Shown: positions 2,441-60,931 of the stretch, piece after piece
How the letters are laid out: each line of letters opens with the position of its first letter
Position numbering within the stretch: position 1 is the stretch's first letter
Origin: Verrucomicrobiia bacterium
Lineage (GTDB): Bacteria; Desulfobacterota; Binatia; UBA9968
NCBI GenBank assembly: GCA_035495775.1
Contig: DATJFG010000133.1
Location: 10,178-74,177 of the forward strand
Reading direction: 5' to 3'
Length of the DNA stretch: 64,000 nt
Notes under the pieces: generated by a model
What the model was told of the DNA's origin: nothing
The model's input: the letters and a program-made list of their open reading frames with translations, nothing else
Databases searched by the model: none
Program-made: the position numbers and the translations under genes

Positions 2441-2449
2441 AAAAACAGA

Positions 2450-3301: not shown

Positions 3302-3310
3302 GTTTTTCTC

Positions 3311-4075: not shown

Positions 4076-4102
4076 GAAATCACCTCCACAGTGTTTGTTG
4101 AC

Positions 4103-4930: not shown

Positions 4931-4960
4931 GAGGCCTCCTCTTAGGCGACGGGCGAACGG

Positions 4961-7065: not shown

Positions 7066-7073
7066 TGTTCCTC

Positions 7074-15696: not shown

Positions 15697-16698
15697 TTAA
15701 TGCGGACGCCGCGCCTTTCGGACAAAAGAAAAGTCCACGACATCGGAGACCGCGATCTTCCGATCGATTTTCTGGAGCTTTTTCACCTGCTCGATGAGAT
15801 CCAAGACGAGCGCCTCGGGCGCCTCGCCGTCGGAGCTGAACGTTTTGATCATGAGATCATAGCTGTTTTCCGCCACCCGCCGGCTCAAGTGCCACTGCTT
15901 CGCGATGAAATCGAGAGCCTCGCCGCGCCGCGCCCGCGCGAGCTCCACGCTTCGCACCAACACGCGGGCCATCCGCTCGACCTGCGCGGGATTTTCGTTG
16001 ATTTTCTTCACCGAGCAGGCGAGTCCCGATTGCAGCCCTTCGATGATGTCGCCGGCGAAGACGAGCTTCTTGAACCCCTGCTCCTCGGCGATGGAATCAT
16101 CGGGGACCGTGAGAATGGCCGCGTCCACCGCTTTGCCCTGGAGCGCGGCGATCTTGTTGGCCTCGCTGCCGAGCGGCATCGTAACGATGTCTTTATCGGG
16201 GTTGAGCCCGTAATGGCGTACGATGTCGCGCGCAACGAAGTCGGTCGTCGTGCGCAGGGACGAGACCGCGATTTTGCCGCCCTTCAGCGCTGCGACGCTC
16301 TGGATGCCAGGCTGGACCACCAAAACGAGTGACGATCGTATACCGGTAAACCCGATCGCTTTAAGCGGCATGCCCGAGACCGCGGCGCGGATCGTGGTCT
16401 CGGCGGAAGTTGTGAAGTCGAGGTCGGCGCTGATCAGCGCGGGCAGCGCGAGCGCCGTGCGGATCTGGATGATCTCCGGCTGGAAGCCTTCGGCGTCGAA
16501 GAGTTTTTTATCTTTCGCGAGCAGGATCGGCAGCTGGCTCAGCGCCATCACTGGAATGCCGATACGAATCTTCTCCGCCTTCGCCGTCGAACTGAAGCCC
16601 GGGACAAAGCCGCAGAGGATAACGATCGCGGCGATGTATGACGCTGTGACTCCGGTTGCTCGGCTCACGATCGATCCTTCAAATCTTTTTCCGCTCAT
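15697..16698 (-). CDS. NMT1/THI5-like substrate-binding protein, second paralog
   Basis: Signal anchor VTASYIAAIVILCGF then SBP fold. An alternative GTG start at ~16668 would remove the 20-nt overlap with the UbiD-like gene. Confidence 0.65.
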   Translation of the reverse strand: MSGKRFEGSIVSRATGVTASYIAAIVILCGFVPGFSSTAKAEKIRIGIPVMALSQLPILLAKDKKLFDAEGFQPEIIQIRTALALPALISADLDFTTSAETTIRAAVSGMPLKAIGFTGIRSSLVLVVQPGIQSVAALKGGKIAVSSLRTTTDFVARDIVRHYGLNPDKDIVTMPLGSEANKIAALQGKAVDAAILTVPDDSIAEEQGFKKLVFAGDIIEGLQSGLACSVKKINENPAQVERMARVLVRSVELARARRGEALDFIAKQWHLSRRVAENSYDLMIKTFSSDGEAPEALVLDLIEQVKKLQKIDRKIAVSDVVDFSFVRKARRPH

Positions 16699-18331
16699 TC
16701 AGATATTCTTCGGCTATTTTTTCGAACTCGCCGCGCACCGCCATCTCGGCGCGGCGCGCGTGTACTTCTGGCCACTCTCCCCACGAAACGCCGTGCCACG
16801 GCTCCATCGGTTTGAGCTTGGGCAAGCCGAGTTCCTCCCAAAGAACGCGGCCGCGCTCCATGAACTCTTTCTTCGGCAGCGATGTCGGCGTGTACGCCCA
16901 TTTTCGCGTCGCATCGATCAAGATGGATGAGTTTCCCGAGAGACCGGTCCGCGACATGGGAAATTCCTGCTCATCGAGAGGCAAACTCCTTGGCCCGCCC
17001 GAAGGGTCCGCGGTCGAGCCGCGTCCGGCGATGATCTGCGTATCCCGATGCGGCTGATACCGGAACGACACGCCCCAAAAGACCGATTCCAAATCCCATG
17101 GATCGATATCCGAATCGACGGCGATGACGATCTTGGGCCATTCGGCGGAGACCGCCAGGGATGAATGAAGCGCATGCCAGACGGTGCGGTCGGAAGTCGG
17201 CGAAGAGCCGACCTGCTGCATGCGGATGACGCAGAACCTGCGCGAGCCGCCGCAGTGATGAAACGCGACGTCTTTCACTTGCGGTATGCCGCACGAGTCG
17301 CGCAGGAAGGTGATCATGCGCGCCTCGCGCGTGAGGTTTCCCATGACGCTCGATTCGCTCGGCGGAAACTGGTCGATCAGGTCGTGCCAGATCGGTTTTT
17401 TGCGGTGCGTGATGCAGCGGACGTGAAAGCCGAAGACCATCCGCCCGATGAAAGTGTAGCCGGTATGCTCGCCGCTCGGCGGATCGGGGAGAAGGTAATC
17501 GGTCGGGATTTCCCCTTCGATGACGATTTCCGCGCCAGCCGGCACCTCGATATCGGAGGTCTCGCAGCGGACGACTTCGATCGGTTCGCCGACCAGAGCG
17601 CCGGCCGCTTCGAGCTCGTTCATGCCGTAAGGAATCTCTGTAATGCTGACGGCAACCACCGCCGGGACCGGGCCCACGACGGCAGCGGCCTGAAGTGGAA
17701 TTCCACGCGCCTTGCATTTTTCCCAGTGAACGCGCAGATCGCCGCGCGGCGAGACGCGCAGGCAAAATTTATCGGGACCGAGCAGCGCGCCGTTGTACGT
17801 GCCGACGTTGACGGCGCCGCTGTCGGGATCGCGCGTGACGACGCAGAGCGACGTCATCCGCGGCAGGGCCTCCCAGCCGTTCGTCGTCATCGGGATCGGG
17901 AACTCGCGCAGGCCGCCGTGCGCCAAGAGGTCGCCGCCCTTGTGAACTTCTTCTTTGACGGCTCCGGTCTTTACCAATCGCGTCGGAATCGGATGGCGGT
18001 ACGCTTCGCTCCAGCGCTCGTAAATCGCTTCGCGGGTCGGTTCGCATTTGAGCGCCAGCGCATAGGCCTCCAGCGATGGAGCGATCACGGCGGCGGCAAC
18101 TCTGCCGTCATAGCGCTTGCCATCGATTCCTTTGAGGTTTTCGAAAAGCAATCCGAAGCGCTCCGCTTCCGGCAGGCCGCGAAAAATCCAGCGCACCACC
18201 GGATGAAGTTCCGTGTCTTTGTCGATTTCTTTCTGGATCCGGCGCAGCTTGCCGAACTTTTCCAGCGCCTCAAGGTATTCGCGCAGATCTTTATAGTAGG
18301 CTCGGGAAGCTTCCGTTCTTTCCGCTTTCAT
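16679..18331 (-). CDS. UbiD-family (prFMN-dependent) reversible decarboxylase/carboxylase
   Basis: 550 aa; UbiD family blocks, including the conserved acidic metal/prFMN-binding region; ATGA overlap with the RidA gene. Confidence 0.8.
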   Translation of the reverse strand: MKAERTEASRAYYKDLREYLEALEKFGKLRRIQKEIDKDTELHPVVRWIFRGLPEAERFGLLFENLKGIDGKRYDGRVAAAVIAPSLEAYALALKCEPTREAIYERWSEAYRHPIPTRLVKTGAVKEEVHKGGDLLAHGGLREFPIPMTTNGWEALPRMTSLCVVTRDPDSGAVNVGTYNGALLGPDKFCLRVSPRGDLRVHWEKCKARGIPLQAAAVVGPVPAVVAVSITEIPYGMNELEAAGALVGEPIEVVRCETSDIEVPAGAEIVIEGEIPTDYLLPDPPSGEHTGYTFIGRMVFGFHVRCITHRKKPIWHDLIDQFPPSESSVMGNLTREARMITFLRDSCGIPQVKDVAFHHCGGSRRFCVIRMQQVGSSPTSDRTVWHALHSSLAVSAEWPKIVIAVDSDIDPWDLESVFWGVSFRYQPHRDTQIIAGRGSTADPSGGPRSLPLDEQEFPMSRTGLSGNSSILIDATRKWAYTPTSLPKKEFMERGRVLWEELGLPKLKPMEPWHGVSWGEWPEVHARRAEMAVRGEFEKIAEEYLNERKKI

Positions 18332-25012: not shown

Positions 25013-25822
25013 ATGACCGCCGCCGAATTCATCAACCGCTTTGTTCTTGCCCGCTCGGCCTATCGGCGCCGCGATACCGAGGCGGCCGAAGCGGCGCATG
25101 CGCATCACCATCTCGAACTATCGCTCTATGAGACCGGGCGGCACGGCCAGCATTTGGCCGACGCGGTGCTCGGGGCGACCGACGGCGTCGTCACAACCTT
25201 CGCAGTCGTCGCCGGCGCAGCGGGCGCGCACCTCTCCTCGGGTGTCGTCCTCATCATGGGCTTTGCCAATCTTTTAGCCGACGGCCTGTCCATGGCGATC
25301 GGCAATTATCTCGGCGCTCGTTCGCAGCGCGATTTCTGGCGCGAGGAACGCGAACGGGAAATCTGGGAGATCGAGCAAATTCCCGAGGCGGAGCGTGAAG
25401 AGATCCGCCGGCACTACCGCCGCAAAGGCTTCGAAGGGGATTTTCTCGAACACGCGGTCGGCCTCATCACGTCCGATAAAGAGCGCTGGCTCGATGAAAT
25501 GATGCGCGAAGAGCTCGGCATCCGCGAAGAAAAGACCGCGCCGGGCATGAGCGGTATCGTCACGTTCGCGGCATTTTCGCTGGTCGGCCTTCTGCCTCTG
25601 ATCTCTTACACGATTGCGTTCTTCTATGCCGATTTTCTGAGGAGCGCGTTTACAGTGTCGATTGCTCTTACGGCCGGCGCGTTGTTCGCCGTCGGCGCGG
25701 CGCGCTGCTTCATTACGCGCCGTACCTGGTGGCGGAGCGGCTTCGAAATCCTCGCATTGGGCGGCGCCGCCGCTCTGTGCGCGTACGCCGTCGGCTATTT
25801 TTTGCAGGCTTTGGTTGGCTGA
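25013..25822 (+). CDS. VIT1/CCC1 (vacuolar iron transporter) family membrane protein
   Basis: Conserved GATDGVVTTFAVVAG and second half LVGLLPLI TM blocks; 269 aa. Confidence 0.7.
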   Translation: MTAAEFINRFVLARSAYRRRDTEAAEAAHAHHHLELSLYETGRHGQHLADAVLGATDGVVTTFAVVAGAAGAHLSSGVVLIMGFANLLADGLSMAIGNYLGARSQRDFWREEREREIWEIEQIPEAEREEIRRHYRRKGFEGDFLEHAVGLITSDKERWLDEMMREELGIREEKTAPGMSGIVTFAAFSLVGLLPLISYTIAFFYADFLRSAFTVSIALTAGALFAVGAARCFITRRTWWRSGFEILALGGAAALCAYAVGYFLQALVG

Positions 25823-25835
25823 AAAGGAGAGCTCT

Positions 25836-26171
25836 ATGACCGTCGAAACGACTGCGGCAACGCCGCTCAGCTTAAGAGAGCATCTTTGGATGGCGCTCGT
25901 CGTCGGGTTTTTGCTGCTCGTCTCGATCGCCTGGACACGGCTGGCGGTGAATGCGTCCGAAGGGCCGCAAAAGAGCGACGGTTATGTCCGGCGCGAGAAA
26001 AAGCCGGTGCTCTCGCCCGCGCTTTTCGTCGGCCAGACGGCGAAGGCCTACCGCATCGCGCAGGAGATTCCCGATGTTCTCGACCAGCTCTACTGTTATT
26101 GCGAATGCGACAGGCACCTCGGGCATAAGAGCCTGCTCTCGTGTTTCACCGATGATCACGGCGCCGGCTGA
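25836..26171 (+). CDS. PCYCGC-motif membrane-anchored protein. The ORF ends at an in-frame TGA and may continue to 26279 as a selenoprotein.
   Basis: TM helix then YCYCECDRHLGHKSLLSCFTDDHGAG; TGA at 26169. The downstream in-frame peptide VNICQGEALDASQMLKQGYSIKQIRAEIDKKYARR runs to TAA at 26277. Confidence 0.55.
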   Translation: MTVETTAATPLSLREHLWMALVVGFLLLVSIAWTRLAVNASEGPQKSDGYVRREKKPVLSPALFVGQTAKAYRIAQEIPDVLDQLYCYCECDRHLGHKSLLSCFTDDHGAG

Positions 26172-26286
26172 GTGAACATCTGCCAAGGAGAGGCGCTGGA
26201 TGCGTCTCAAATGTTGAAGCAGGGCTACAGCATCAAGCAGATTCGCGCCGAGATCGATAAGAAATACGCCCGGCGCTAAAATAAAC

Positions 26287-28284
26287 GTGAAGAATTTTCT
26301 TTTCATTCTTCTTTTTCTTCTTGTCCCCGGGCACGCTTTCGCCCACGGTGAGCACGGCAATGCCGCGCCGCCCACGGGAACGTCGCCGGTAACCGTCGAC
26401 GGCTATCAAATTGAACTGTTGACGGTTCCTTCGCCGCTCGTCGCCGGCAAAGCGAGCCAAATCGTCGCGAAGGTGCTGCGCAGCGGCACGATGGAGCCCG
26501 TGAGCGGCGGCACGGTTTCCATCGGCATCGCCCCGATGGAAGCGGCGGCGGCGATGGATGCGCATAGTGAGCACGCCGGTCATGCCGCAATGAATCACGG
26601 TTCGTCTTTGACGCCGGTGCCCGAGGTCACATGGGCGGGCAGCTATACGCTCGAGCAGACGCCGGTGCAGCCGGGCTCCCATATGGTCCGCGTTGCGCTG
26701 GCGGAGCTCAACGGCAGAGCTTTCGCATCGCCGATCGTTATCGATTTTCATATCGACGTCGGCTCCGCCAACGCAATTTCGCCCGCGCTTCTCATAGCCG
26801 CGCTATCGGCATTGGTCGTCGCTTTCGTCGGCGTCGGGCGCGCCGCGGCGCGCGCGCGCGCGCCGATCGAGGCCGAGGGTTCGCTCGATTTGCTGCGCCT
26901 TCAATGGCTCGATCGCTTCGTCCGCTGGAGAGGATTCCAGCCGGTTTTTCAACTCCCCGTTTTAGCGCTGACGATTCTGCTCGCGTATCTGGGCTTCGCC
27001 GACATCCAGGACGGCGCGAAAAATCTCGCGACGAGACTCACCTGGATCGTCTGGTGGCCGAGCATCATCTTTACTTTTATTCTCGTCGGCCGCTTCTGGT
27101 GCGTGATGTGTCCGTTCGGCGCACTCAACGAATGGGCGGCGAAATTGGGCAAGCCCGGGCGCATGTTTCCCAAACCGCTGCGCAATCTTTGGGTTGCGAC
27201 TTTTCTCTTTGTCCTTCTCACTTGGTTCGACGAGCAGCTCGGCATCATCCGCTCGCCGTATATGACGGCTTCTCTCATCGTCCTGCTCTCGTCGGCCGCG
27301 ATCGTCACCGGACTTTTTTATCAGCGCCGGACTTTTTGCCGATATCTATGCCCGATCACCGGCTTGCAGGGCCTTTACTCGATGATCTCCCCCGTCGAGC
27401 TGCGCTCAAAAAATCGCAGCGCGTGCCAGACCGAGTGCCATCAGGAATGCTATCGCGGCAACGACCGCGGCGACGGCTGCCCGATGTTCGAGTTCCCGAT
27501 GATGATGGAGCAGAATACGTTCTGTAACTTCTGCTTCGAATGCGTGAAAAGCTGTCCGCCGGGAAATCTAGCGCTTAAAACGCGCGCGTTTGGACGCGAG
27601 CTGTGGAGCGCGGGCGTCCGCAAGCTCGACGAAGCGTATCTCGCCGTCGCGCTGGTCGGCATCACCAGCATCGTCAGCGCGCAGATGCTCGGGCCGTGGA
27701 ACGACTGGATATCGCGCCTGGCGCGTTATCTGCCGATCGACATCCGTGTTTTGATGCGGCCCGTGACATATCTCGCGATGACCGAATCGGCCGTGTTCTT
27801 CCTGCTATCGCTCGCCTTTGCCCCCTTGCTGGTACTTTTCGCCGCCTGGTTGGCGGTCAAGTCGTCAGGTGAAACGGCGCGAAGCGTCAAGGAGACGTTT
27901 GTCATGTTGGCGGGCATGTTTATTCCCGTCGGCCTCGCGATGCATCTCGCGCACAACGCGTCCCATCTTCTGGCCGAGGGAGCCGGGGTTATTCCGGCCT
28001 TGCAGCGCGTCTTGAACCGCTACACTCCGTTCGATTTCGGCACGCCCAATTGGCAGAGCAGCCCGCTGGCGTCCGCCGAAGCGATCCACTGGCTGCAGAT
28101 GCTGCTCATCGTTGCCGGGCTCGGTCTCTCGTTGGCCGCCTACGAGCATCTTTCGATCGCATGGCAGGGAAAGCGGCCGCAAGGGGCGCGGGCGCTCATT
28201 CCGTTCGCGGCAGTGGCCCTCATCTTCACGATCATCAATTTGCTCCTCCTCAATCAGCCGATGGCCATGCGCCACGGCATGTAA
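26287..28284 (+). CDS. membrane polyferredoxin of NapH/CcoG(FixG)/NosR type with N-terminal periplasmic His/Met-rich domain
   Basis: Signal peptide; HGEHGN and MDAHSEHAGHAAMNHG; CxxCP motifs FWCVMCPFG and CRYLCPITG; two ferredoxin motifs CQTECHQEC...CP and CNFCFECVKSCPPG; extra C-terminal TM helices; GTG start. Confidence 0.7.
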   Translation: MKNFLFILLFLLVPGHAFAHGEHGNAAPPTGTSPVTVDGYQIELLTVPSPLVAGKASQIVAKVLRSGTMEPVSGGTVSIGIAPMEAAAAMDAHSEHAGHAAMNHGSSLTPVPEVTWAGSYTLEQTPVQPGSHMVRVALAELNGRAFASPIVIDFHIDVGSANAISPALLIAALSALVVAFVGVGRAAARARAPIEAEGSLDLLRLQWLDRFVRWRGFQPVFQLPVLALTILLAYLGFADIQDGAKNLATRLTWIVWWPSIIFTFILVGRFWCVMCPFGALNEWAAKLGKPGRMFPKPLRNLWVATFLFVLLTWFDEQLGIIRSPYMTASLIVLLSSAAIVTGLFYQRRTFCRYLCPITGLQGLYSMISPVELRSKNRSACQTECHQECYRGNDRGDGCPMFEFPMMMEQNTFCNFCFECVKSCPPGNLALKTRAFGRELWSAGVRKLDEAYLAVALVGITSIVSAQMLGPWNDWISRLARYLPIDIRVLMRPVTYLAMTESAVFFLLSLAFAPLLVLFAAWLAVKSSGETARSVKETFVMLAGMFIPVGLAMHLAHNASHLLAEGAGVIPALQRVLNRYTPFDFGTPNWQSSPLASAEAIHWLQMLLIVAGLGLSLAAYEHLSIAWQGKRPQGARALIPFAAVALIFTIINLLLLNQPMAMRHGM

Positions 28285-28313
28285 AACTCCCGCGCACTAC
28301 GGAGGTTGTTTCG

Positions 28314-30680
28314 ATGTCCCGAGCAAATTTAAGCAGGCGCGACTTTCTCCGCCAGACCGCCGCTCTCGCCGCGGCATCGGGCGTATCGCCGAGTGTTTTT
28401 TTCGCCAAGGAGGCCGACGCCGAAGAAGCGGTCGTCGATGCCTGGCAAAAAGCGCCGTGCCGCTTCTGCGGCACGGGCTGCGGCGTTCTAGCCGGAATAC
28501 GCAAAGGCAAGATCGTCGCCGTGCGAGGCGATCCCGAGGCGCCGGTCAACCGCGGGCTTCTCTGTATCAAAGGTTACAGTCTGCCGAAGATCCTCTACGG
28601 CTCCGACCGCTATACGACGCCGCTGCTGCGCCAAGGCGATGAGTTTGTCCCGATCACCTGGGAAAGCGCGCTCGATCTCATGGCCGCCAAGTTCAAGCAG
28701 GCGATCGAAAAATCCGGACCGGAATCGGTCGGCGCTTACTTCTCGGGGCAATCGACGATTTTCGAGGGCTACGCGATCAATAAGCTGATGAAGGGCGGCA
28801 TCGGTTCGAACAACATCGAGGGCAATCCGCGGCTCTGCATGGCTTCGGCCGTCACCGGATTCTACTCGACGTTCAATATGGACGAGCCGATGGGCTGCTA
28901 CGACGATTTCGAGCTCACCGACACCTTTTTTCTCTGGGGCTCGAACATGGCGGAAATGCATCCTATGCTTTACTCGCGCATTGTCGAGCGCAAGCGGCAA
29001 GACCCCGCCGTCAAGATCGTGAGCCTCCAGACCTTTACGAACCGCAGTGCGGAAGCTCCGGCCGATATCGTTATGGTCTTCAAGCCGCAGTCCGATCTCG
29101 CCATCGCCAACGCCATGGCCCACGTGGTCGTCAAAGAGGGGCTCATCGACGAGAACTTCATCCGCAAGCACGTGAATTTTAAACGCGGTCTCACCAACAT
29201 CGGCTACGGCGTCGAAGACCGCTTCGAATACGGCGGCGCGGAGCCGAGCTGGAAAACCTTTCGACCCTTCGCCGACAAAGGCGAGCCGGTAAGCTACGAC
29301 GATTACAAAAAATTTCTCCAGACCTACACGCCGGAATACGCCGAAAAGATCTCGGGCGTGCCGGCGCAGATAATCCGAGAGGCGGCGCTGCTATTCGGCG
29401 ATCCCAAGCGCAAGGCGGTTTCCCTTTGGACGATGGGGTTCAACCAGCACACCCGCGGCACTTGGATCAATAATTTGCTCTACAACCTGCACCTGCTGAC
29501 GGGAAAAATCGCCGCGCCGGGAAACAACCCGCTATCGCTCACGGGGCAGCCGTCCGCCTGCGGCACGACGCGCGAGACCGGCGCGCTCGCGCATCTTCTT
29601 CCCGGCGGTCATTTCGTCGCCAACGAAGAGCACCGAAAGGAGGCGGCGGAAATCTGGGGTGTCGCGCCGGAGAAGATCTCTCCCAAGCCGGGTTATCATA
29701 CGATGGAGCTGTTCCGCGCCTTGGACCGCGGCGACGTTAAAGTGCTGTGGATCAACACGACGAATCCATTTCAGACGCTGCCGCGCGCCGGCCGCTACCG
29801 ACAGGGCGCGCGTAAAGGCGGGGAGCGCTTTTTGATCGTGTCGGAGGTCTACCCGAGCGAGACGTCGCGTTACGCCGATCTCATCCTGCCGTCTGCGATG
29901 TGGATCGAGAAGGAAGGCATGTTCGGGAATACCGAGCGCCGCACGCAGCATTGGGCGAAGATGGTCGAGCCGCCCGGCCAGGCGAAAGGCGATCTATGGC
30001 AAATCGTCGAGCTGGCGAAGCGCTTGGGTCTGGGGAAACTTTTCGACTACGGCGCGGAGCCGCTGGAGAAATCCTTATTCGAAGAATATCGCAAGTTCGG
30101 CTCGGGAAGAGGAAAGGATCTCGCTCCGTACGATGTCTACGCAAAGGTTCGCGGCGGACTTAGGTGGCCGGTGGTCGACGGCAAAGAAACTCGCTGGCGC
30201 TATCGCGAAGGTCACGATCCCTACGTCAAGGCCGGCGAGGAGGTGCGCTTTTACGGCCAGCCGGACGGCCGCGCGGTTATTTGGCTGCGGCCCTACGAGG
30301 CGCCGGCGGAAGCGCCGGACGGCGATTATCCCTTCTGGCTCAGTACCGGCCGCGTCCTTGAGCATTGGCACACCGGAACGATTACGCGGCGCGTTCCCGA
30401 ACTCCACGCGGCTTTTCCCTTCGCCCCGGTTTGGATCAATCCCGATGACGCCAAGGCCATGGACGTCAAGACCGGCGACCGCATGCGCATCCAATCCCGC
30501 CGCGGCGAGATTGTCGCGCGCGCCGAGCTGGGCGGCAGGAACACGGTGCCGAAAGGCTTCGTTTACGTGCCGTTTTTCGATGAGAGCGTGCTGATCAATT
30601 TGGTGACGCTGGACGCTTTCGATCCCATTTCCAAACAGCCGGACTTCAAGAAATGCGCCGTCCGATTAGAGAAAATATAG
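28314..30680 (+). CDS. napA: periplasmic nitrate reductase catalytic subunit NapA (molybdopterin oxidoreductase)
   Basis: Tat signal SRRDFLRQTAALAAA; N-terminal [4Fe-4S] motif CRFCGTGCGV typical of NapA; ~788 aa. The track ORF starts upstream, but the ATG at 28314 with GGAGG RBS fits. Confidence 0.85.
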   Translation: MSRANLSRRDFLRQTAALAAASGVSPSVFFAKEADAEEAVVDAWQKAPCRFCGTGCGVLAGIRKGKIVAVRGDPEAPVNRGLLCIKGYSLPKILYGSDRYTTPLLRQGDEFVPITWESALDLMAAKFKQAIEKSGPESVGAYFSGQSTIFEGYAINKLMKGGIGSNNIEGNPRLCMASAVTGFYSTFNMDEPMGCYDDFELTDTFFLWGSNMAEMHPMLYSRIVERKRQDPAVKIVSLQTFTNRSAEAPADIVMVFKPQSDLAIANAMAHVVVKEGLIDENFIRKHVNFKRGLTNIGYGVEDRFEYGGAEPSWKTFRPFADKGEPVSYDDYKKFLQTYTPEYAEKISGVPAQIIREAALLFGDPKRKAVSLWTMGFNQHTRGTWINNLLYNLHLLTGKIAAPGNNPLSLTGQPSACGTTRETGALAHLLPGGHFVANEEHRKEAAEIWGVAPEKISPKPGYHTMELFRALDRGDVKVLWINTTNPFQTLPRAGRYRQGARKGGERFLIVSEVYPSETSRYADLILPSAMWIEKEGMFGNTERRTQHWAKMVEPPGQAKGDLWQIVELAKRLGLGKLFDYGAEPLEKSLFEEYRKFGSGRGKDLAPYDVYAKVRGGLRWPVVDGKETRWRYREGHDPYVKAGEEVRFYGQPDGRAVIWLRPYEAPAEAPDGDYPFWLSTGRVLEHWHTGTITRRVPELHAAFPFAPVWINPDDAKAMDVKTGDRMRIQSRRGEIVARAELGGRNTVPKGFVYVPFFDESVLINLVTLDAFDPISKQPDFKKCAVRLEKI

Positions 30681-30688
30681 GTGGGCTC

Positions 30689-30985
30689 ATGACGAAAATC
30701 ATTTTCCCGATTCTTTTCGTGGCATTTCTCGCCTTATCGACCGCGCAGGACTCTCCCGCAGAAGAGAGTCAGCGGTTGCCGCGCTCTTATCCTGGAGCGC
30801 CGCCTCTGATTCCGCACGATGTGGAGGCGCGAAAGGGACTTTGTCTCACCTGTCATGAAACCGGAGTGGCTGAGGCGCCGATCGTTCCGCATCCGACGCG
30901 TGATCCGGTATGCCTGGAGTGCCATGTCGGCCAAGACCGTACGGCGAAAGAGTTCCGTAGCTCCACTCAGCCGGCTAAGCAGTAA
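30689..30985 (+). CDS. napB: diheme cytochrome c NapB, small subunit of periplasmic nitrate reductase
   Basis: Signal peptide, two CxxCH (CLTCH, CLECH), LIPHD region; ~98 aa; immediately downstream of napA. Confidence 0.75.
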   Translation: MTKIIFPILFVAFLALSTAQDSPAEESQRLPRSYPGAPPLIPHDVEARKGLCLTCHETGVAEAPIVPHPTRDPVCLECHVGQDRTAKEFRSSTQPAKQ

Positions 30986-31066
30986 AGAGGAGCACGTCGT
31001 CTGACTACCGCGACGGGCTATTCAACACGGAGAGCAGCGTTGGCTTACGCAGGGTGCTTCAGTTAA

Positions 31067-31543
31067 TCAAGCCGCTGCAACAGCCGGCTTCAGCTGCGGC
31101 TGTGGTCGGATAGACAGAACGGGGCAGGATGATTTCCGCACGACGTTTTCCGTGACGCTTCCCGTGAGCATGTGCGATAGCCCTGTCCTGCCATGCGTTG
31201 AGATGACAATGAGATCGACATTCTCCTGGGCGACCTTCTCTACGATATTTTCGTCTGGATTGCCTACTTCAACGATAGCTTCCAACCCTTCCACCGGCAG
31301 CAAATCGCTACAGTGCGCTTCGATGAAGCTCGCGAGCAGCTGACGATGCTTCTTCAACAGCTTTTCAAGCAGAATCGGCTTGACGTGCAAGAGCTGGAAG
31401 CGGACAAATTCGTCAAGGCAAAGCACGTGATAGACGATGACCTTGCAGCCGGACTCTTTGGCCATCTCAAGCGCCGTACGCAAGCCGACAAGCGAAAGCT
31501 CCGATAAATCCGTCGGCGCCAGAATCTTTCCAATTTTTTTCAT
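31067..31543 (-). CDS. universal stress protein (UspA family)
   Basis: 158 aa; USP fold blocks (ILAPTDLSE..., VIVISTHGRTGL..MLTGSVTENVVRKSSCPVL). Confidence 0.85.
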   Translation of the reverse strand: MKKIGKILAPTDLSELSLVGLRTALEMAKESGCKVIVYHVLCLDEFVRFQLLHVKPILLEKLLKKHRQLLASFIEAHCSDLLPVEGLEAIVEVGNPDENIVEKVAQENVDLIVISTHGRTGLSHMLTGSVTENVVRKSSCPVLSIRPQPQLKPAVAAA

Positions 31544-31588
31544 CGTCCGATCCTCTCGGTTAGTGGGAGTTTTCTATTTTTTGCTTCA

Positions 31589-31603
31589 GCACAAAGCATG
31601 CCA
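31589..31603 (-). promoter_or_regulatory. possible sigma54 promoter variant TGGCAT-gcttt-GTGCT upstream of usp
   Basis: Plus strand GCACAAAGCATGCCA; GG/GC spacing correct, -12 is GTGC. Confidence 0.3.
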
Positions 31604-31769
31604 CCCATAACGAGTAAATCTCCAGGAAAAAGCCTGTCTCTACATGGCTTTTTCCACTTTTTAAGAGAATGGCGCTTAAAATTCGCATTGAAGCGAAAAA
31701 TTCCCTCGCCCTCTTCAGTAAGTTGTGCTATTTTTCCACGGCATAAAGCTTGCTGTGTGGTTTCGGCGC

Positions 31770-32510
31770 ATGAGGAATCGGCTCATAATTACGTCCGCTT
31801 TTTCCTTCCTCATCACCTCCTTTATTTTTTCAGCGGCTCTGTCTTTCGCCTACGATGAGATCGCAGTTGCCAACGGCGGTGCGATCAAAGGCACGGTCCG
31901 GTTTACCGGCGGTCTGCCGAAGCTCGCCCCCCCCGTCGTGACGAAGTTCAAAGAGGTCTGCCAGGGCGTTCCGAATGAAAGCCTGGTCAGCGGTCCGGGA
32001 CAGGGAATCCGCTATGCCGTCGTCACGCTTGAAGGCGTCGCCAAAGGACGTCCCATCGAGCGCGAAGTCGTCCATGAAATCGACAACGTAAAATGTCGCT
32101 TCGCGCCCCATGTGATCGTCGCGGAGGTGGGGCAGTTTATCGTCTTCAAGAACAGCGATCCGATACTCCATACGGCGCACGCTTTATTCCAGGGCGATCA
32201 GCCGCAATTCAACGTCGGCCTCTATCCTGGACGCGTCAGCCGCAAGCCGCTGACGATGCCGGGAATCGTAAAGATCATTTGCGAAGTCCATTCATGGATG
32301 AGCGCCTACGTCGGGGTCACCGATCACCCGTATCACGCCGTCACGGACGCCTACGGTGAATATTTAATCCAAGATGTGCCGCCGGGCGTCTACCGGCTGA
32401 AACTATGGCATGAGACTTTGGGCGTCCAGGAGAAAGATATCGAAGTGAAAGCGGCTACGACTGCGCAGGTCGACTTCAGCATGTCGCAAAAATCGGGAGA
32501 AAAGAAATGA
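31770..32510 (+). CDS. secreted cupredoxin-like (type-1 copper, C-x2-H-x2-M) domain fused to carboxypeptidase-regulatory-like beta-sandwich domain
   Basis: Signal peptide; ligand candidates H (PILHTAHALF) and CEVHSWM (amicyanin-like C-x2-H-x2-M); C-terminal YGEYLIQDVPPGVYRLKLWH CarbopepD_reg-like. Confidence 0.5.
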   Translation: MRNRLIITSAFSFLITSFIFSAALSFAYDEIAVANGGAIKGTVRFTGGLPKLAPPVVTKFKEVCQGVPNESLVSGPGQGIRYAVVTLEGVAKGRPIEREVVHEIDNVKCRFAPHVIVAEVGQFIVFKNSDPILHTAHALFQGDQPQFNVGLYPGRVSRKPLTMPGIVKIICEVHSWMSAYVGVTDHPYHAVTDAYGEYLIQDVPPGVYRLKLWHETLGVQEKDIEVKAATTAQVDFSMSQKSGEKK

Positions 32511-33124
32511 TCCGGCCGTGGCTGATCATATCGGTTTTGCTCGCTCTGGATTTTTCATCTGCGCTGGCGGCAGAGCCGGCAAACGGCGTCATTAAGGGAT
32601 CCATCACCATCGGCGGCCGGCCGACCGCCGATGCCGTCGTTTCCTTGGAGGGGTTCTCGCCGAAGGCTGTAAAGCCGCAATCAGCCGCCAGCAAAACGAA
32701 AGCCGTCATCGATCAAAAAGATCTCAAATTTAATCCGCGCGTGCTGGCCGTGATGGTGGGCAAGACCGTGGATTTTCCGAATCACGACAAGACTTTCCAC
32801 AACGTCTTTTCGACCTCAGAGGCGAAAAAATTCGATCTCGGTCTCTATCCGTCGGGCCAAAGCCGCAGCGTCAATTTCGACAAGCCGGGCGTCGTCAAAA
32901 TCTTGTGTAATGTCCATCCAAACATGGAGGCCTACGTTGTCGTCAAGGCGCACCCGTACTTCAGCGTTCCCGACGACCGCGGCAATTATTCCATCAAGGG
33001 TGCGCCGATGGGTAAATATCGCGTCGAGGTGTGGCATCCACAATTCGGCGTCAAAAGCGTTCCCGTGGAGCTGGTGCGAGACGGCGAAGTCCTCGCGATC
33101 AATTTGGATTTAAAGGACAAATAG
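32507..33124 (+). CDS. paralog of preceding gene: cupredoxin-like + carboxypeptidase-regulatory-like domain protein
   Basis: FHNVFS ... CNVHPNM (C-x2-H-x2-M) ... GNYSIKGAPMGKYRVEVWH; ATGA overlap. Confidence 0.5.
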   Translation: MIRPWLIISVLLALDFSSALAAEPANGVIKGSITIGGRPTADAVVSLEGFSPKAVKPQSAASKTKAVIDQKDLKFNPRVLAVMVGKTVDFPNHDKTFHNVFSTSEAKKFDLGLYPSGQSRSVNFDKPGVVKILCNVHPNMEAYVVVKAHPYFSVPDDRGNYSIKGAPMGKYRVEVWHPQFGVKSVPVELVRDGEVLAINLDLKDK

Positions 33125-33250
33125 CTCATTCGAGTCTTGTTTTTGAAAATTACCGGTATTATACCTGAGCGCGAATTTTCAGTCGTCGGTTTGCGGTAAT
33201 TCCGAGGCCGCGGCGATGCGGCCGGTTAGAGAAAGCGAACGGGGGGTTAC

Positions 33251-34213
33251 ATGATCCAACGACCTCTGAAGGATTTCGTTTTCCGCTGTCTTGTAAAATT
33301 TTCCGCAGCGGCTGTTTTCTTCATTCTAACCGCAGCCGCCTGGTCTGCGGACGCACCTCCACCCGAGCCTACCTACGTCGGCAGCGACGTCTGCAAGGCC
33401 TGTCACGCGCCTCAATTCGAGCAGTTCTCGCAGACGCAGATGGGCAAAATATTTTTATTCAACGCCCGCACGCTGCGCGAGAAACAAGCCTGCGAATCTT
33501 GCCACGGACCCGGCAGCAATCACGTCGCCGCCGGCGGCGGCCGGGGCGTCGGCGGGCTGATCTCGTTTCGTAAAGACGCCGAGCCGGGAAAAGTGCAAAA
33601 CGGCGCCTGTCTCCAATGCCATGAGAAGGGCATGCATACGTATTGGGAGGCGAGCCCGCATGCGAGCCGCGGGCTCACCTGCACGAACTGCCACACCGTC
33701 ATGCACAAGACGACCGACCGCTACCAGCTCGCGAAGGTCGACGACAAGACCCCGTTTTTCTGGAAGCGCGCCGATATCGAGGTCTGCGGGCAATGCCATC
33801 TGCAGAGAAAAGCGCAGCTCATGCGCTCCTCACACATGCCGATGCGCGAAGGAAAGATCGGCTGCAGCGACTGCCACAATCCCCATGGAACGCCGAATCC
33901 GTCCCAGCTGAAACAGGCAAGTGTCAATGAGAACTGTTACACGTGCCACACCGAGCGGCGCGGGCCCTTCCTATGGGAGCATCCGCCGGTCATCGAGAAC
34001 TGCACGAATTGCCATGAGCCGCATGGTTCGGTCAACGACCGGCTGCTAAAGGTCACAGACCCGCGTCTCTGCACGCAGTGCCACCAGACGGCATTTCACC
34101 CCTCGACGCCGCGCGGGAAGAATTCGGCCTTTTTCTTCAACCGCAGCTGTACGAATTGTCATAGTCAGGTCCACGGCTCGAATCATCCAGCTGGGATATT
34201 CTTCCAGAGATAA
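33251..34213 (+). CDS. periplasmic decaheme c-type cytochrome, MtrA/MtoA/PioA family
   Basis: Signal peptide and 10 CxxCH motifs in 320 aa (CKACH, CESCH, CLQCH, CTNCH, CGQCH, CSDCH, CYTCH, CTNCH, CTQCH, CTNCH). Confidence 0.85.
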   Translation: MIQRPLKDFVFRCLVKFSAAAVFFILTAAAWSADAPPPEPTYVGSDVCKACHAPQFEQFSQTQMGKIFLFNARTLREKQACESCHGPGSNHVAAGGGRGVGGLISFRKDAEPGKVQNGACLQCHEKGMHTYWEASPHASRGLTCTNCHTVMHKTTDRYQLAKVDDKTPFFWKRADIEVCGQCHLQRKAQLMRSSHMPMREGKIGCSDCHNPHGTPNPSQLKQASVNENCYTCHTERRGPFLWEHPPVIENCTNCHEPHGSVNDRLLKVTDPRLCTQCHQTAFHPSTPRGKNSAFFFNRSCTNCHSQVHGSNHPAGIFFQR

Positions 34214-34225
34214 GGAGGTCGGAAC

Positions 34226-36535
34226 ATGAAAACCATCAAGCGGTCCCGCGCGATTATTACCGGCTTGGCGACGTCGGTGGTTCTGGCCTTCAGCGGTCTC
34301 GCCGCGGCGGAGGTCGAATTCGCCGATCTGGTCGCCAGCGGCAGCGCAGAGATCGGTGGCGTCCCCGGCACGAGAACCGGCGGCAATGAGGGGAAATCGA
34401 AGTTCGAGGAATATCGTGAGACCGGCCTCGGCGGCTGGATCGTTCCCGAGCTGCAGTTGTTCCTCGGCGGCAAGAAAAACGACTTCTTCGTCAGCTTCGA
34501 TTCCACCAAGCCGGGTTTCAGGGATCAAAATTATCGCCTCCGCTTCGGCCTCTACGGCCTCCTCGACATCGAGGCGGAATGGGATCAGATCCCGCATCTC
34601 TTCGACGAGGGGATCTCCCGCACGCCCTTCCGCCGCGACGGCGGCACGTTCCATCTGGACGGCAAACCGACCACCAACATTTCAACTTCGGCTCACTGTG
34701 ATGCGCAGCCGGCGACGAATTTTTGCCATTTTCTCGATAAGGGAAATACGCACCCCGTCGATTTGGGGCTGCTCTACGGCATCGGCCGTTTTAAAATCAA
34801 ATACACGCCCCTTCCGGGCTGGACATTAAACGCCGGTTACTGGTCGCAGCACGTCGGCGGCGACCGCGCGTTCGGAACGATATTCGGCACGCCCGGGAAC
34901 TTTTCCGTGGTCGAGCTCCCCGAGCCGATCGACTATCAGATGCACAACGTCGAGCTCGGCGGGGAATACGCGGCAGACTGGTGGTCGGTGGGGCTTAGGT
35001 ATCAGGGCTCGTTCTTCCACAACAACATCAGCACGCTGATTTGGGACAATCCGCTGAACCTCACCGGCGTCGGCGGCGGCTGCTCCGACTCGGCGACCTT
35101 CAGCAATGCCACCAACGGAGTGGACGCCAACCGCGGCCCGTGCCGTGGGCGGCTCGACCTCTATCCCAGCAACCAGGCGCATACGTTCACGCTCACGGGC
35201 GCGGCGACTTTACCCTGGAAGACGCGTTTCATGGGAACCGCCTCCTACGGCTGGCGGCTCCAGGACGACAAGTTTCTTCCCTTCACGATCAATAGCGCGA
35301 TCACCCAGCCGGCCATGTCCGCGCACAGCCTCGACGGGGACGTCCGGCCGACGATGATCAACGCCACGGTCGTCAACAACGCGATCGATCATCTGAACCT
35401 TAAGGCCTACTATCGCTATTTCGATCTGGACAATCAGAGCCGCAGGGTCTCTTTCCCCGACGGCATCGTCATCAACGATCAGGCGGGCACCGCGGTAAGC
35501 CCCAATTGCCCGCCCGCCGGCGCGAGCTGCGGGGACGCCGAGAGAACCAACCGCTACGCCTATTCCAAGCAGAACATCGGCTTCGACGCCGGATATGACT
35601 TGACCCGCTGGCTGACGGTTAAACTCGGAACAGGCTGGGAGAAGATGCATCGGGAATTCCGCGAGGTCAGAAACAGCGATGAATACGGCGTCGGCCCGAC
35701 GGTCGACGTCAAGCCGTTATCGTCGCTTCTGCTCCGCGCGAGCTACCGCCATTCGTGGCGCAACCCCTCTCATTATAATCTCGACGAGGAGAACATCGCC
35801 AAGAAGTTCGACGAGGCGCGACGGAACCGCGACCGCGCGAGTCTCTTCGCGCAATATACACCGTGGGAGATTTTAAACCTCTACGCCGGATTCGAGTTTA
35901 CCAAGGACGATTATCCCGACAGCCGCCTGGGCACTCAATTCGATTTCAATTATTCGCCCTCGGCGGGCTTTGCGCTAATGCCGTACAAATGGCTCAAGTT
36001 TTTCGGCGATTACAATTGGGACCGCTACGACTGGCAGCTCGATGCGATACAACGAAGCGCGGCTTTGGAGACTCCCGACGCCGTGAATTGTCCGAAGAGC
36101 GGACCGACCCGCTGCTGGACGAGCCGCGGCCTGGACCGAGTCCACACGTTGTCGTTCGGCAGCGACGTGACTCTGATTGAAAACGTCCTCGGCTTCCGCA
36201 TCCAGTACGGCTATTCGTTCGGCACCAGCCGAGTGAACGCCTCGGGCGCCACCTGCGGCGGCTGCACCCGGGCGACGAACTATCCGACGATTAACAATAG
36301 CTGGCAAGAGCTGCTCGCCCGTTTTGAATATCAGGTCATGAAGAACGTCGGTTTAAGGGTGGGCTACTACTTCAACCGTGCCCGCGACAACGACCACGGC
36401 GTCGATATCATGAAACCGTGGATGGGCGATGTCGACCCCAGCGCGAGTGTGCAGCATTCTGTGTTTCTCGGCGACCGCATCAAAGGTCCGTTCACGGCGC
36501 ACGTCGGCTTCGTCGCTTTGAAATTCAGTTTCTAG
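34226..36535 (+). CDS. outer-membrane beta-barrel porin of MtrB/MtoB/PioB family
   Basis: Signal peptide, 769 aa, alternating amphipathic beta-strand pattern, C-terminal ...ALKFSF aromatic terminus; AAGGAGG RBS; gene order matches mtrAB/mtoAB/pioAB. Confidence 0.7.
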   Translation: MKTIKRSRAIITGLATSVVLAFSGLAAAEVEFADLVASGSAEIGGVPGTRTGGNEGKSKFEEYRETGLGGWIVPELQLFLGGKKNDFFVSFDSTKPGFRDQNYRLRFGLYGLLDIEAEWDQIPHLFDEGISRTPFRRDGGTFHLDGKPTTNISTSAHCDAQPATNFCHFLDKGNTHPVDLGLLYGIGRFKIKYTPLPGWTLNAGYWSQHVGGDRAFGTIFGTPGNFSVVELPEPIDYQMHNVELGGEYAADWWSVGLRYQGSFFHNNISTLIWDNPLNLTGVGGGCSDSATFSNATNGVDANRGPCRGRLDLYPSNQAHTFTLTGAATLPWKTRFMGTASYGWRLQDDKFLPFTINSAITQPAMSAHSLDGDVRPTMINATVVNNAIDHLNLKAYYRYFDLDNQSRRVSFPDGIVINDQAGTAVSPNCPPAGASCGDAERTNRYAYSKQNIGFDAGYDLTRWLTVKLGTGWEKMHREFREVRNSDEYGVGPTVDVKPLSSLLLRASYRHSWRNPSHYNLDEENIAKKFDEARRNRDRASLFAQYTPWEILNLYAGFEFTKDDYPDSRLGTQFDFNYSPSAGFALMPYKWLKFFGDYNWDRYDWQLDAIQRSAALETPDAVNCPKSGPTRCWTSRGLDRVHTLSFGSDVTLIENVLGFRIQYGYSFGTSRVNASGATCGGCTRATNYPTINNSWQELLARFEYQVMKNVGLRVGYYFNRARDNDHGVDIMKPWMGDVDPSASVQHSVFLGDRIKGPFTAHVGFVALKFSF

Positions 36536-36556
36536 TCAAGAGAGGAAGATAAAATC

Positions 36557-36940
36557 ATGCAATGGATCATCTTGATTGGTGCGTTAGTGATTTTCTCATT
36601 TTCCTCTCCGGCCAGCACATGGGCGCAGTCAAAAGGGGATGCCAACGCTGGAAAAGCAAAATACGAATCTCTATGCGCGGGCTGTCACGGGAAAACAGGT
36701 AAGGGCGACGGCCCGGCGGCGGCGAGCTTGAACCCCAAGCCGCAGGATCATACCGATGGCAAAGTCATGAATGCTCTCAGCGATCAATACCTGACGGACA
36801 TTGTCAAGAACGGCGGCGCATCGGTTAAAAAATCGCCGCTGATGCCCGCGTGGGGCAAGACGTTGAAGGACCAAGAAGTAGCGGATGTAATCGCCTATAT
36901 AAGAAGCTTGGCCAATCCTCCCTACAAGTCGGGGAAATAA
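36557..36940 (+). CDS. monoheme class I cytochrome c (MtoD-like candidate)
   Basis: Signal peptide, single CAGCHG, distal Met region; 127 aa. Confidence 0.8.
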   Translation: MQWIILIGALVIFSFSSPASTWAQSKGDANAGKAKYESLCAGCHGKTGKGDGPAAASLNPKPQDHTDGKVMNALSDQYLTDIVKNGGASVKKSPLMPAWGKTLKDQEVADVIAYIRSLANPPYKSGK

Positions 36941-37065
36941 GGACGCTCTATTCCCTGTCGGCCTGGAACGTTTTCATTCGGCGGCGAATCGACATCGGCG
37001 GCAGCCGCTTGTAATCATCGATCGGCATATTAAAATTACATAGCAGATTCACAGGAGGAATCATC

Positions 37066-37389
37066 ATGAAAATCTTCGTAGCCATGCTTGGTTTTTTCCT
37101 CGCTGCAGCGCTGTCCGGCGTTGGCTGGGCCGCCGATGCCGGCAAGGCTGTGTATGACAAACAGTGCGCCTCGTGCCATGGACCCGACGGCAAGGGGAAT
37201 CCATCGATGGCGAAGGTTTTTGGCGAGAAGCAACTCAACATCGCCACAAAGGAAGTCGCGGATAAGAAAGACGACGAGCTCGTCAAGGTGATTACCGAAG
37301 GTAAAGGCAAAATGCCGGCCGCGGGCAAGTCGCTGAACGCCGCAGATCAAAAAGCCGTCGTAAGCCACGTAAAGTCTCTCGGGAAGTAG
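37066..37389 (+). CDS. monoheme class I cytochrome c
   Basis: Signal peptide, CASCHG; 107 aa; paralog of 46495-46845 product. Confidence 0.8.
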   Translation: MKIFVAMLGFFLAAALSGVGWAADAGKAVYDKQCASCHGPDGKGNPSMAKVFGEKQLNIATKEVADKKDDELVKVITEGKGKMPAAGKSLNAADQKAVVSHVKSLGK

Positions 37390-37417
37390 GCGGCAGCAGG
37401 GGAACAACACGGCCTTG

Positions 37418-38599
37418 ATGATAAAAATCATCGCTGCCGCTGCTGTTCTCCTCTGCTTGGCCAGCGCGGCGTTCGCTCAATCGCTCTTCACTTCGGAGCA
37501 GGATCCGACCGCCGGCGCTCGCGTCTTCGGTGCTAAGGGATGCTCGAATTGCCATAGCATCGAAGGGCTCGGCGGCAAAATCGGCCCCGATCTCGCGCGC
37601 ACCCAGCAAGGCCGCTCGTTTTACGATCTCGCCGCCGCCATGTGGAACCATCTTCCAGGCATGGCGGACAAGATGCGGGAGTTGAAGATCCAGCGGCCGC
37701 TTCTCAGCGCCGAAGATGCGGCCAACCTGATCGCGTTCCTTTTTACGCTCCAGTATTTTGACCGTCCTGGAAATGTCGATGCAGGCAAACGTCTCTTCGC
37801 GGAAAAAAAATGCGTTGTTTGCCATCAACTGAACGGCACCGGCGGCGTCGTCGGCCCGAATCTCGACGGGCTTAAAGATTATGGCTCGCCGCTCTTCATC
37901 GCCGCTGCTATGTGGAATCACGGACCATCGATGGCCGCGGTTATGCGTGAAAAGAGGATTGCACGGCCGTCGTTCAGGGGTTCGGAACTGACCGATCTCA
38001 TCACATATATAAAATCGGCGGCGACGGCGAAAAGCGAGTCGCCGGTGACTGTTTTGACCGGCTCTCCCGAACGCGGCCGGCGACTTTTCGCCGATAAGCA
38101 CTGTCTCGAGTGCCATAGTGTCGCGAGTCAGGGAGGAAAAATCGGGCCGGATCTGGCGGATAAAGCGCTCCACCGAAGCATTCTCGATTTCGCAGCGGCG
38201 ATGTGGAACAAAGCGCCGGCGATGCTCGCGGCGATGAAGACCCGCAAAGTCGCTGCTCCGAGACTAGAACCCGAAGAGATGGCCGACATCGTCGCCTATC
38301 TTTACTCCGTCCAGTACTTTGCGCGCCCGGGCAACGCGAAAAGGGGGCGCGAGATTGCCTCCCAAAAAGGATGCTTTAGCTGCCATGGCGTAGCTGGCGT
38401 CGGGGATAAGTCCGCGCCGAGTTTTTCGCAGATCAAGGACATCGACTCGCCGGCGACCGTGATCGCGGCGATGTGGAATCATTCGTTTCTCACGGATCGA
38501 CCGTTGCAGGGTCAAAAAACGCTTTGGCCGCAGTTTCGTGCCGACGAGATGGCGGATTTGGCGGCCTATTTGCAAACGAGTGGCCGGGGGCCGACATGA
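37418..38599 (+). CDS. tetraheme cytochrome c built from four tandem class-I cytochrome c domains
   Basis: Four ~95-aa repeats, each with CxxCH (CSNCH, CVVCH, CLECH, CFSCH), a GPDL/GPNL turn and an AAAMWNH motif. Confidence 0.8.
   Translation: MIKIIAAAAVLLCLASAAFAQSLFTSEQDPTAGARVFGAKGCSNCHSIEGLGGKIGPDLARTQQGRSFYDLAAAMWNHLPGMADKMRELKIQRPLLSAEDAANLIAFLFTLQYFDRPGNVDAGKRLFAEKKCVVCHQLNGTGGVVGPNLDGLKDYGSPLFIAAAMWNHGPSMAAVMREKRIARPSFRGSELTDLITYIKSAATAKSESPVTVLTGSPERGRRLFADKHCLECHSVASQGGKIGPDLADKALHRSILDFAAAMWNKAPAMLAAMKTRKVAAPRLEPEEMADIVAYLYSVQYFARPGNAKRGREIASQKGCFSCHGVAGVGDKSAPSFSQIKDIDSPATVIAAMWNHSFLTDRPLQGQKTLWPQFRADEMADLAAYLQTSGRGPT
37480..38590 (+). repeat. 4x intragenic tandem repeat (~285 nt units) encoding cytochrome c domains
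   Basis: Repeated protein blocks G(A/E)(R/K)..F..K.C..CH......G.(I/V)GP(D/N)L....FAAAMWN. Paralogous at protein level, nucleotide divergence substantial. Confidence 0.6.
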
Positions 38600-39849: not shown

Positions 39850-39875
39850 GAGATTCCAACGCCTCAGGAGATAAC

Positions 39876-40331
39876 ATGTCCGACGGAACACTCGATCCGC
39901 GAATCGACCGGAGAAACTTCTTAAACTGGTTTCTAGGTACGACGGCAGGCGCTTTTCTCGTCGCGGTTCTGTACCCGCTGAGCCGCTACCTTATCCCTCC
40001 AAAGGTCGAGGAGTCGACCGCCAAGAATGTTACACTTTCGATCAAACCCGGCGACGTCAAAGTCAACAGCGGCGAGATTTTCCGCTTCGGCAACCAGCCG
40101 GCGATTTTGGTTCGGACCCCCGCCAACGAGCTCAAAGCGTTCTCGGCGGTCTGCACGCATCTGTCCTGTATCGTTCAATACCGATCGGACCTGAGCCATA
40201 TCTGGTGCGCGTGCCACAACGGCCACTATGATCTCAACGGTAAAAATATCATCGGCCCGCCGCCCAAGCCGCTCGAAGCATACACCGTCAACGTCAAGGG
40301 CGACCAGATCGTTGTGAGCAAGACGGCGTGA
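39876..40331 (+). CDS. Rieske [2Fe-2S] iron-sulfur subunit of a cytochrome bc-type complex
   Basis: Tat motif RRNFLNW, TM helix, CTHLSC...CACHNGHY Rieske boxes; ATG at 39876 with AGGAGA RBS preferred over GTG at 39846. Confidence 0.85.
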
Positions 40332-40336
40332 CGCTT

Positions 40337-41434: not shown

Positions 41435-41463
41435 CTTGTACGTATCGTTGAACGCAGGACAAG

Positions 41464-42570: not shown

Positions 42571-42600
42571 AAGGCCGGCCGAGAAGTCGGCGGATCGTCA

Positions 42601-44565: not shown

Positions 44566-44603
44566 GCGGACGAGGGATCGACAAAAAGGAAGGATAAGTC
44601 TTA

Positions 44604-60884: not shown

Positions 60885-60931
60885 CGTTGAACTCCTTGTA
60901 ACCAGCGAGCGCGGAAGGCGGCGCGGCAGCG

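Follow-up and report, generated by a model that had tools for sequence, protein, structure and literature searches.

The gene analysed here lies on the plus strand of a 64-kb stretch of DNA, which is called the window as a whole. It starts with an ATG (25836-25838). The open reading frame ends with LLSCFTDDHGAG (SCFTDDHGAG) and is followed by an in-frame TGA. Past this TGA, the same frame reads VNICQGEALDASQMLKQGYSIKQIRAEIDKKYARR, i.e. 35 codons, up to a TAA at 26277-26279. The first-pass annotation, which was made from the sequence alone, had read both ends in the same way. Translation up to the TGA yields 111 residues, translation across it 146 residues. The 111-codon segment comprises a hydrophobic signal-anchor helix and a CYCEC...GH...C...H motif, and its translation is identical to the database protein P0001. 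Table 1 lists the features of the locus and of its downstream neighbourhood.

Table 1. Features of the CYCXC locus and of the genes downstream (window coordinates)
Feature	Position	Strand	Basis or detail
Shine-Dalgarno-like AAGGAG	25823-25828	+	7 nt 5' of the ATG; read directly from the sequence
N-terminal 111 codons of the CYCXC (seleno)protein	25836-26168	+	ORF list; matches to PF13798 and NF041379
Predicted single transmembrane/signal-anchor helix, ~aa 17-33, LWMALVVGFLLLVSIAW	25884-25934	+	Hydrophobicity; helix at the equivalent place in a homologue model
YCYCEC, the CYCxC signature of the family	26091-26108	+	Invariant Y86 C87 Y88 C89 C91 in alignments A1 and A3
In-frame TGA, residue 112, predicted to be read as selenocysteine	26169-26171	+	Aligned to an invariant Cys of full-length homologues
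C-terminal 35 codons and TAA (VNIC...EALDAS...KQGYS..IR..ID.KY)	26172-26279	+	Raises the NCBIfam and Pfam scores
Putative SECIS hairpin	26190-26208	+	Stem 26190-26196/26202-26208; apical loop UGGAU 26197-26201
665-aa Fer4_5/NapH-like polyferredoxin membrane protein with N-terminal signal peptide	26287-28284	+	Pfam PF12801; synteny
Cupredoxin	32507-33124
DmsE/MtrA-type decahaem cytochrome	33251-34213
MtrB/PioB outer-membrane porin	34226-36535
Several more multihaem cytochromes and cytochrome b	38473-46412

Directly downstream of the polyferredoxin gene, a large respiratory/electron-transfer cluster extends from 28311 to 46412. It includes NapA (1073 bits) with NapB, and its gene content resembles an extracellular electron conduit of the porin-cytochrome type beside a periplasmic nitrate reductase. 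Elsewhere in the window, genes typical of anaerobic aromatic or acyl-CoA metabolism are located at 1649-8228 (minus strand) and 16679-18331: they encode two BcrAD/BadFG-type ATPases, an HGD-D family subunit, an enoyl-CoA hydratase, a short-chain dehydrogenase and an amidohydrolase. A UbiD-family decarboxylase is encoded further along. At 59934-61328 (minus strand), a 464-aa ORF adjoins ABC-transporter genes; it has no Pfam match and a weak NCBIfam match to SsuA-family substrate-binding proteins.

Family membership and the selenocysteine/cysteine column

The product was assigned to its family with two profile models. NF041379 (OS_HP4_CYCXC) is the NCBIfam equivalog model "CYCXC family (seleno)protein" with a cutoff of 90 bits. 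The read-through product, in which U was written as C, scores 133.6 bits and the truncated ORF 89.2 bits. This means, only the read-through form (+44 bits) reaches the cutoff. The match spans residues 56-144 on model positions 2-89 of 90. PF13798 (PCYCGC) matches the read-through product with 41.4 bits over residues 68-145 and the truncated ORF with 25.6 bits (+16 bits for the former), the latter just above the gathering threshold of 25 bits. The first-pass annotation had proposed a PCYCGC-family protein whose C-terminal domain continues past the TGA, and alignment with both models bears this out: the PF13798 match, too, runs across the TGA. The CYCxC signature as well as the downstream G-H, C and D-x-H residues of NF041379 are all present in the window protein. 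Y86, C87, Y88, C89, C91, H97, C103, D106 and H108 are invariant in alignment A3, and G96 is so, too, in alignment A1. The motifs given for the family in the first-pass annotation, a Cys pair followed by K-G-S-x-x-IR-x-ID, were essentially right.

The family, OS_HP4 (PF13798), is counted among the selenoprotein families in two reviews (PMC13188914, PMC9312934). Both attribute 'hypothetical protein OS_HP4' to Zhang and Gladyshev, 2007 (PMC1976440); the main text of that paper names only OS_HP1-3. A homologue from Binatia, P0024, already bears the NCBI name "CYCXC family (seleno)protein" in the protein database. Since reviews and the NCBI model have already catalogued the family as containing selenocysteine (Sec), the finding is not new: 25836-26279 is an ordinary member of a known selenoprotein family. 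With NF041379/OS_HP4 it shares the CYCxC motif, the conserved His and Cys residues, Sec as the first residue of the C-terminal Cys pair and the C-terminal EALDA...G.S..IR..ID.KY region. It differs from the U-x-x-C motif given in the reviews by U-x-x-x-C, which is found in its clade. Compared to PF13798, its motif is L-YCYCEC instead of P-CYCGC. PF13798 is also broader: it takes in Firmicute lipoproteins (PMC13068155), and Pfam is silent on Sec.

For a comparison of the codon at the TGA position, 80 related loci were fetched from species-representative genomes and the column was located by pattern. The codon is TGA in 48 loci and TGC or TGT in 17, and the pattern did not locate the column in the remaining 15. 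In full-length homologues, the counterpart of the TGA at 26169 is an invariant Cys (C119 in alignment A4), and Cys occupies this column in 57 of 57 full-length database homologues. The alignment of the TGA to a Cys had been foreseen from the sequence, as had a look at relatives for TGC or TGT at this codon. The only variant at the column that is neither Cys nor TGA is Arg. The database homologues fall into two length classes: those of 111-116 aa end exactly at ...H[GA]A[GT], and those of ~153 aa go on with C-x-x-C-Q-x-E-A-L-D-A...K-Q-G-Y...I-R...I-D-x-K-Y. The case that homologues end before this point, which had been named as an argument against a selenoprotein, does not apply: both the ~153-aa homologues and the 48 TGA loci continue past the column. 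In all Sec-form loci whose contig reaches far enough, the frame past the TGA stays open and its protein sequence is conserved. The contig of one of them (L072) ends 7 codons past the TGA, and this locus was left out of the 48 Sec-form sequences used below (47 loci and the window). The carriers are metagenome-assembled genomes (MAGs) of Binatia, "Deltaproteobacteria" (RIFCSP and groundwater bins), Methylomirabilota/Rokubacteria, Nitrospinota, Tectomicrobia and others. The nearest relatives among the loci are Binatia-type bins with a best identity of 63-78%.

The Arg variant belongs to a metagenomic relative from the U-x-x-x-C clade (L081:1299-1757, protein P0058; also P0086), which has CGG at the Sec column. 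Its hairpin is weakened by TCA in place of TCT, several otherwise conserved residues are altered, and the gene is located between cytochrome b and multihaem cytochrome genes. It looks like a lineage that no longer uses Sec, and it may be a decaying copy.

Within the Sec forms, the spacing of the C-terminal pair varies. The window protein has U-V-N-I-C, and 13 loci have likewise U-[VIE]-[ND]-[IYF]-C (L001-L009, L012, L013, L026, L076); these are Binatia and 'Deltaproteobacteria' MAGs. In the remaining 34 Sec loci, the spacing is U-x-x-C, with the pattern U-[DGNH]-[IV]-C. A C-x-x-x-C spacing was seen in no Cys form. U-x-x-x-C is a clade-specific insertion of one residue, a small departure that does not affect membership in the family according to the profile model, and as a spacing it is mildly new. 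Due to the extra residue between Sec and Cys, the stem of the putative SECIS starts 18 nt from the UGA instead of ~15 nt.

The hairpin downstream of the TGA

The hairpin consists of a 7-bp stem, GAGGCGC/GCGTCTC, and the loop TGGAT. It folds with -10.7 kcal/mol, and its pair probability in a 120-nt context is 0.99. In the first-pass annotation, a stem-loop with a 9-nt arm had been placed ~16 nt after the TGA. The hairpin itself is real and conserved, but the first two bases of that arm are unpaired, so that the stem starts at 18 nt. The fold was compared with the bSECISearch consensus model as quoted in PMC13188914. This model has an upper stem of 4-16 bp (7 bp in the window), an apical loop of 3-9 nt (5 nt, UGGAU), a required G in the first two loop positions (G at position 2, followed by another G), a distance of 16-37 nt between UGA and loop (25 nt) and a minimum free energy of -7.5 kcal/mol or lower. 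The window hairpin lies within the bounds of every published bSECIS criterion, and folding the region past the TGA, which had been proposed as a check, speaks for the candidate. With the bacterial model it has in common that an in-coding stem-loop with a 7-bp upper stem and a 5-nt G-bearing loop follows the UGA; it differs in that no convincing conserved lower stem is present in the window's clade. Taken alone, the hairpin is unremarkable: the local fold has a z of -1.2, and ~6% of all TGA triplets in the window precede a hairpin that passes the bacterial SECIS criteria. An Rfam scan of 25700-26400 with E-values up to 10 returned only noise and no SECIS family.

Conservation is more informative. 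The sequence GAG GCG CTG GAY GCG TCT C, a hairpin of 7-8 bp, is common to all 48 Sec-form sequences. Across these, pairing is found in 97% of cells, with one compensatory change (GAAGCGC/GCGCUUC in L053). The G at loop position 2 is invariant, also where the loop codons encode other residues. Since the same nucleotides encode a conserved peptide, the hairpin sequence shows an unusual degree of invariance between phyla. As the stem hardly varies, covariation is minimal and counting it adds little. Instead, synonymous sites were compared between Sec and Cys forms, which is the informative test since the hairpin overlies the codons of the conserved E-A-L-D-A-S. In the Sec forms, the stem uses GAG for Glu (47/48), GCG for Ala in the first arm (47/47), GCG for Ala in the second arm (48/48) and TCT for Ser (43/47). 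The Leu codon, which lies at the border of stem and loop, is CTG in 47/47, and the Asp codon in the loop is GAT in 22 and GAC in 19 sequences. At other Ala codons of the same genes, third-position entropy amounts to 0.8-1.75 bits, and at the other conserved Ser codon of the Sec forms TCC is preferred (33/46). Such a constraint is not observed in the 17 Cys forms, where GCG, GCA, GCC and GCT alternate freely at each of the two Ala codons. Judged from these codon counts, the stem codons are frozen at synonymous sites in the Sec forms only.

These data also bear on the question of whether the TGA arose by a sequencing or assembly error, or whether a Cys codon was recently lost to an inactivating mutation, so that the gene would be a pseudogene. 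TGA is one base away from TGC and TGT, and Cys forms of the family do exist. A chance event of this kind is nevertheless hardly conceivable: 48 independent assemblies share this TGA, a JGI metagenome and an SRA run independently yield the identical 111-aa product, the hairpin is constrained in Sec forms and not in Cys forms, and the coding signal goes on past the TGA (see below).

Among the Cys-form loci nearest to the Sec clade, L014 and L025 retain the hairpin sequence GAGGCGCTGGAnGCGTCTC, and L011 retains it with one mismatch. The retained sequence suggests that the three loci are recent Sec-to-Cys conversions with a relic SECIS.

Stop usage, coding signal and decoding of the TGA

A codon-usage log-likelihood model was trained on 39 Pfam-supported genes of the window. 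Among the window TGAs with at least 25 open codons on either side, TGA 26169 ranks first with scores of 0.42 upstream and 0.44 downstream (genes: 0.24-0.61). The G+C content of the window is 59%, and many of its TGAs are flanked by 25 or more open codons on either side. Neither the open frame nor the hairpin stands out by itself; the evidence against chance comes from homology. Two scans of the window for a second TGA-interrupted (selenoprotein) gene found none. The runner-up TGA-split candidate at 2452 (minus strand) proved to be two adjacent genes in the same frame. The 39 genes end with TGA (17), TAA (13) or TAG (9). An alternative genetic code is ruled out by this stop-codon usage.

TGA is also the commonest stop in the window, and it might be a true stop here. 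The gene would then encode a 111-residue truncated PCYCGC protein, and the 35 downstream codons would be untranslated or constitute a separate small ORF. On a matching contig of 33,429 bp from JGI sample 3300045391, the gene was split in exactly this way, into a 'hypothetical protein' of 111 aa and a second ORF of 35 aa. This does not explain why, in 48 loci of several phyla, the downstream 33-35 codons keep the frame, contain no stop and encode a conserved protein sequence, nor why they correspond to the C-terminal domain of the Cys forms with its invariant residues. The truncated product still matches PF13798, but stays below the NCBIfam cutoff, and the GTG at 26172 is without independent support as a start codon of a second ORF. 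The Sec machinery was not seen in the 64-kb window: a search that included a Pfam scan of 39 further ORFs found no selA, selB or selD. All in all, a true stop at this position is very unlikely.

No tRNA and no tRNA-Sec was detected by ARAGORN in the 64-kb window or in 47 related loci (L001-L076, ~600 kb in total). Zero tRNA genes seems low for so much bacterial DNA; chance, the local context or an issue with the tool are possible reasons.

Another explanation would be that the UGA is read through without Sec, either by a near-cognate Trp or Cys tRNA or in a reassigned code, and that the hairpin merely stimulates this read-through. Hairpins 3' of stop codons can stimulate read-through in general, and Sec at the UGA is a prediction from sequence. 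A reassigned code is excluded by the 17 of 39 window genes that end in TGA. Furthermore, the column is Cys in all non-TGA homologues except for the one Arg, the classic Sec/Cys pattern, the hairpin with its invariant loop G conforms to the SelB-type bacterial SECIS model, and the family is curated as a selenoprotein family. Read-through of this type is highly improbable.

Given the family membership, the Sec/Cys column and the conservation of both the downstream frame and the hairpin, TGA 26169-26171 very probably encodes Sec, and 25836-26279 is very probably a single gene for a 146-residue CYCXC selenoprotein. The candidate selenoprotein of the first-pass annotation has been strengthened by the NF041379 cutoff, which is passed only with read-through, by the 48 TGA loci and by the conserved hairpin of the Sec forms. 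Actual insertion of Sec at the UGA is what we infer from these patterns. In the proposed mechanism, the UGA would be decoded as Sec with the in-coding SECIS hairpin over the EALDAS codons, 18 nt downstream, as the signal. As is standard in bacteria, the apical loop (UGGAU with the invariant G at position 2) would be the binding site of SelB loaded with Sec-tRNA(Sec), and Sec would be delivered while the UGA occupies the ribosomal A site. Without selenium, or when recoding fails, the 111-residue truncation would be made.

Topology, partner gene and possible role

The predicted protein would consist of one N-terminal membrane-anchor helix and a small all-helical domain rich in Cys and His. Its invariant residues are C-Y-C-x-C, G-H, C, D-x-H and the U/C...C pair, and Sec would be the first residue of this C-terminal pair, just in front of a helix. 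The most hydrophobic 19-mer of the window protein comprises aa 20-38 (mean Kyte-Doolittle value 2.17). The charges that flank the hydrophobic helix are uninformative for its orientation in the window protein; most homologues have a strongly basic N-terminus ahead of it. In addition, the Firmicute PCYCGC proteins are lipoproteins (PMC13068155). Together with the hydrophobic helix, these two properties suggest that the Cys/His-rich domain faces the outside of the cytoplasm.

The AlphaFold model of P0012, the closest full-length Cys homologue, is all-helical and confident for residues 61-153 (pLDDT 85-98). In this model, the C119-x-x-C122 pair is located at the start of a helix that comprises residues 120-134. 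Nucleophilic redox Cys or Sec residues are usually located at such helix starts. A PDB sequence search and Foldseek yielded nothing meaningful, and no CcmH chain appeared in the PDB sequence search.

The downstream gene encodes a polyferredoxin with a match to PF12801 and weak NCBIfam matches to NapH/MauN. Its hydrophobic segments number ~9, a CX2CX2CX3C motif is located at aa 413, and Pfam matches nothing in the periplasmic domain at its N-terminus. A homologue of this polyferredoxin gene adjoins the CYCXC gene on the same strand in 43 of 67 loci. Of the 39 loci with 2.5 kb or more on each flank, 27 have it as a neighbour; by form, these are 24 of the 29 Sec loci and 3 of the 9 Cys loci. The most economical reading would be that CYCXC protein and polyferredoxin form a two-gene redox module, in which the CYCXC domain, through its selenol/thiol or as a metal binder, would receive electrons from the polyferredoxin. 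As for its role, the CYCXC protein may be the partner of the co-transcribed NapH-like polyferredoxin in selenol/thiol redox chemistry or in the handling of a metal.

The C-terminal half of the CYCXC protein is weakly similar to the periplasmic thiol:disulfide oxidoreductases of the CcmH/NrfF type (PF03918; structure 2hl7), an alignment that needs a 13-residue gap. Unlike the CYCXC proteins, CcmH does not have the CYCxC/His-rich N-terminal half. Neither whole proteins nor C-terminal fragments gave an HMM match to PF03918 at E-values up to 10, and the resemblance may perhaps be analogy only. A more far-reaching reading would be that CYCXC is a CcmH-like extracytoplasmic selenol/thiol oxidoreductase in a fixed module with an electron-supplying NapH-like polyferredoxin, and that the U-x-x-x-C spacing of the active site in the window's clade has previously been undescribed. 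This we consider rather doubtful. If it were true, possible substrates would be the CXXCH sites of the many c-type cytochromes encoded nearby, or a metal ion.

For annotation, the analysis means that the present 111-aa and 35-aa records should be merged into a single selenoprotein of 146 residues, with the TGA marked as a translation exception. The near-invariant SECIS over the EALDAS peptide in several phyla is a clean example of a dual coding constraint. For assigning a function to the family, three modest additions result: the U-x-x-x-C sub-clade, the synteny with the polyferredoxin gene and the weak resemblance to CcmH.
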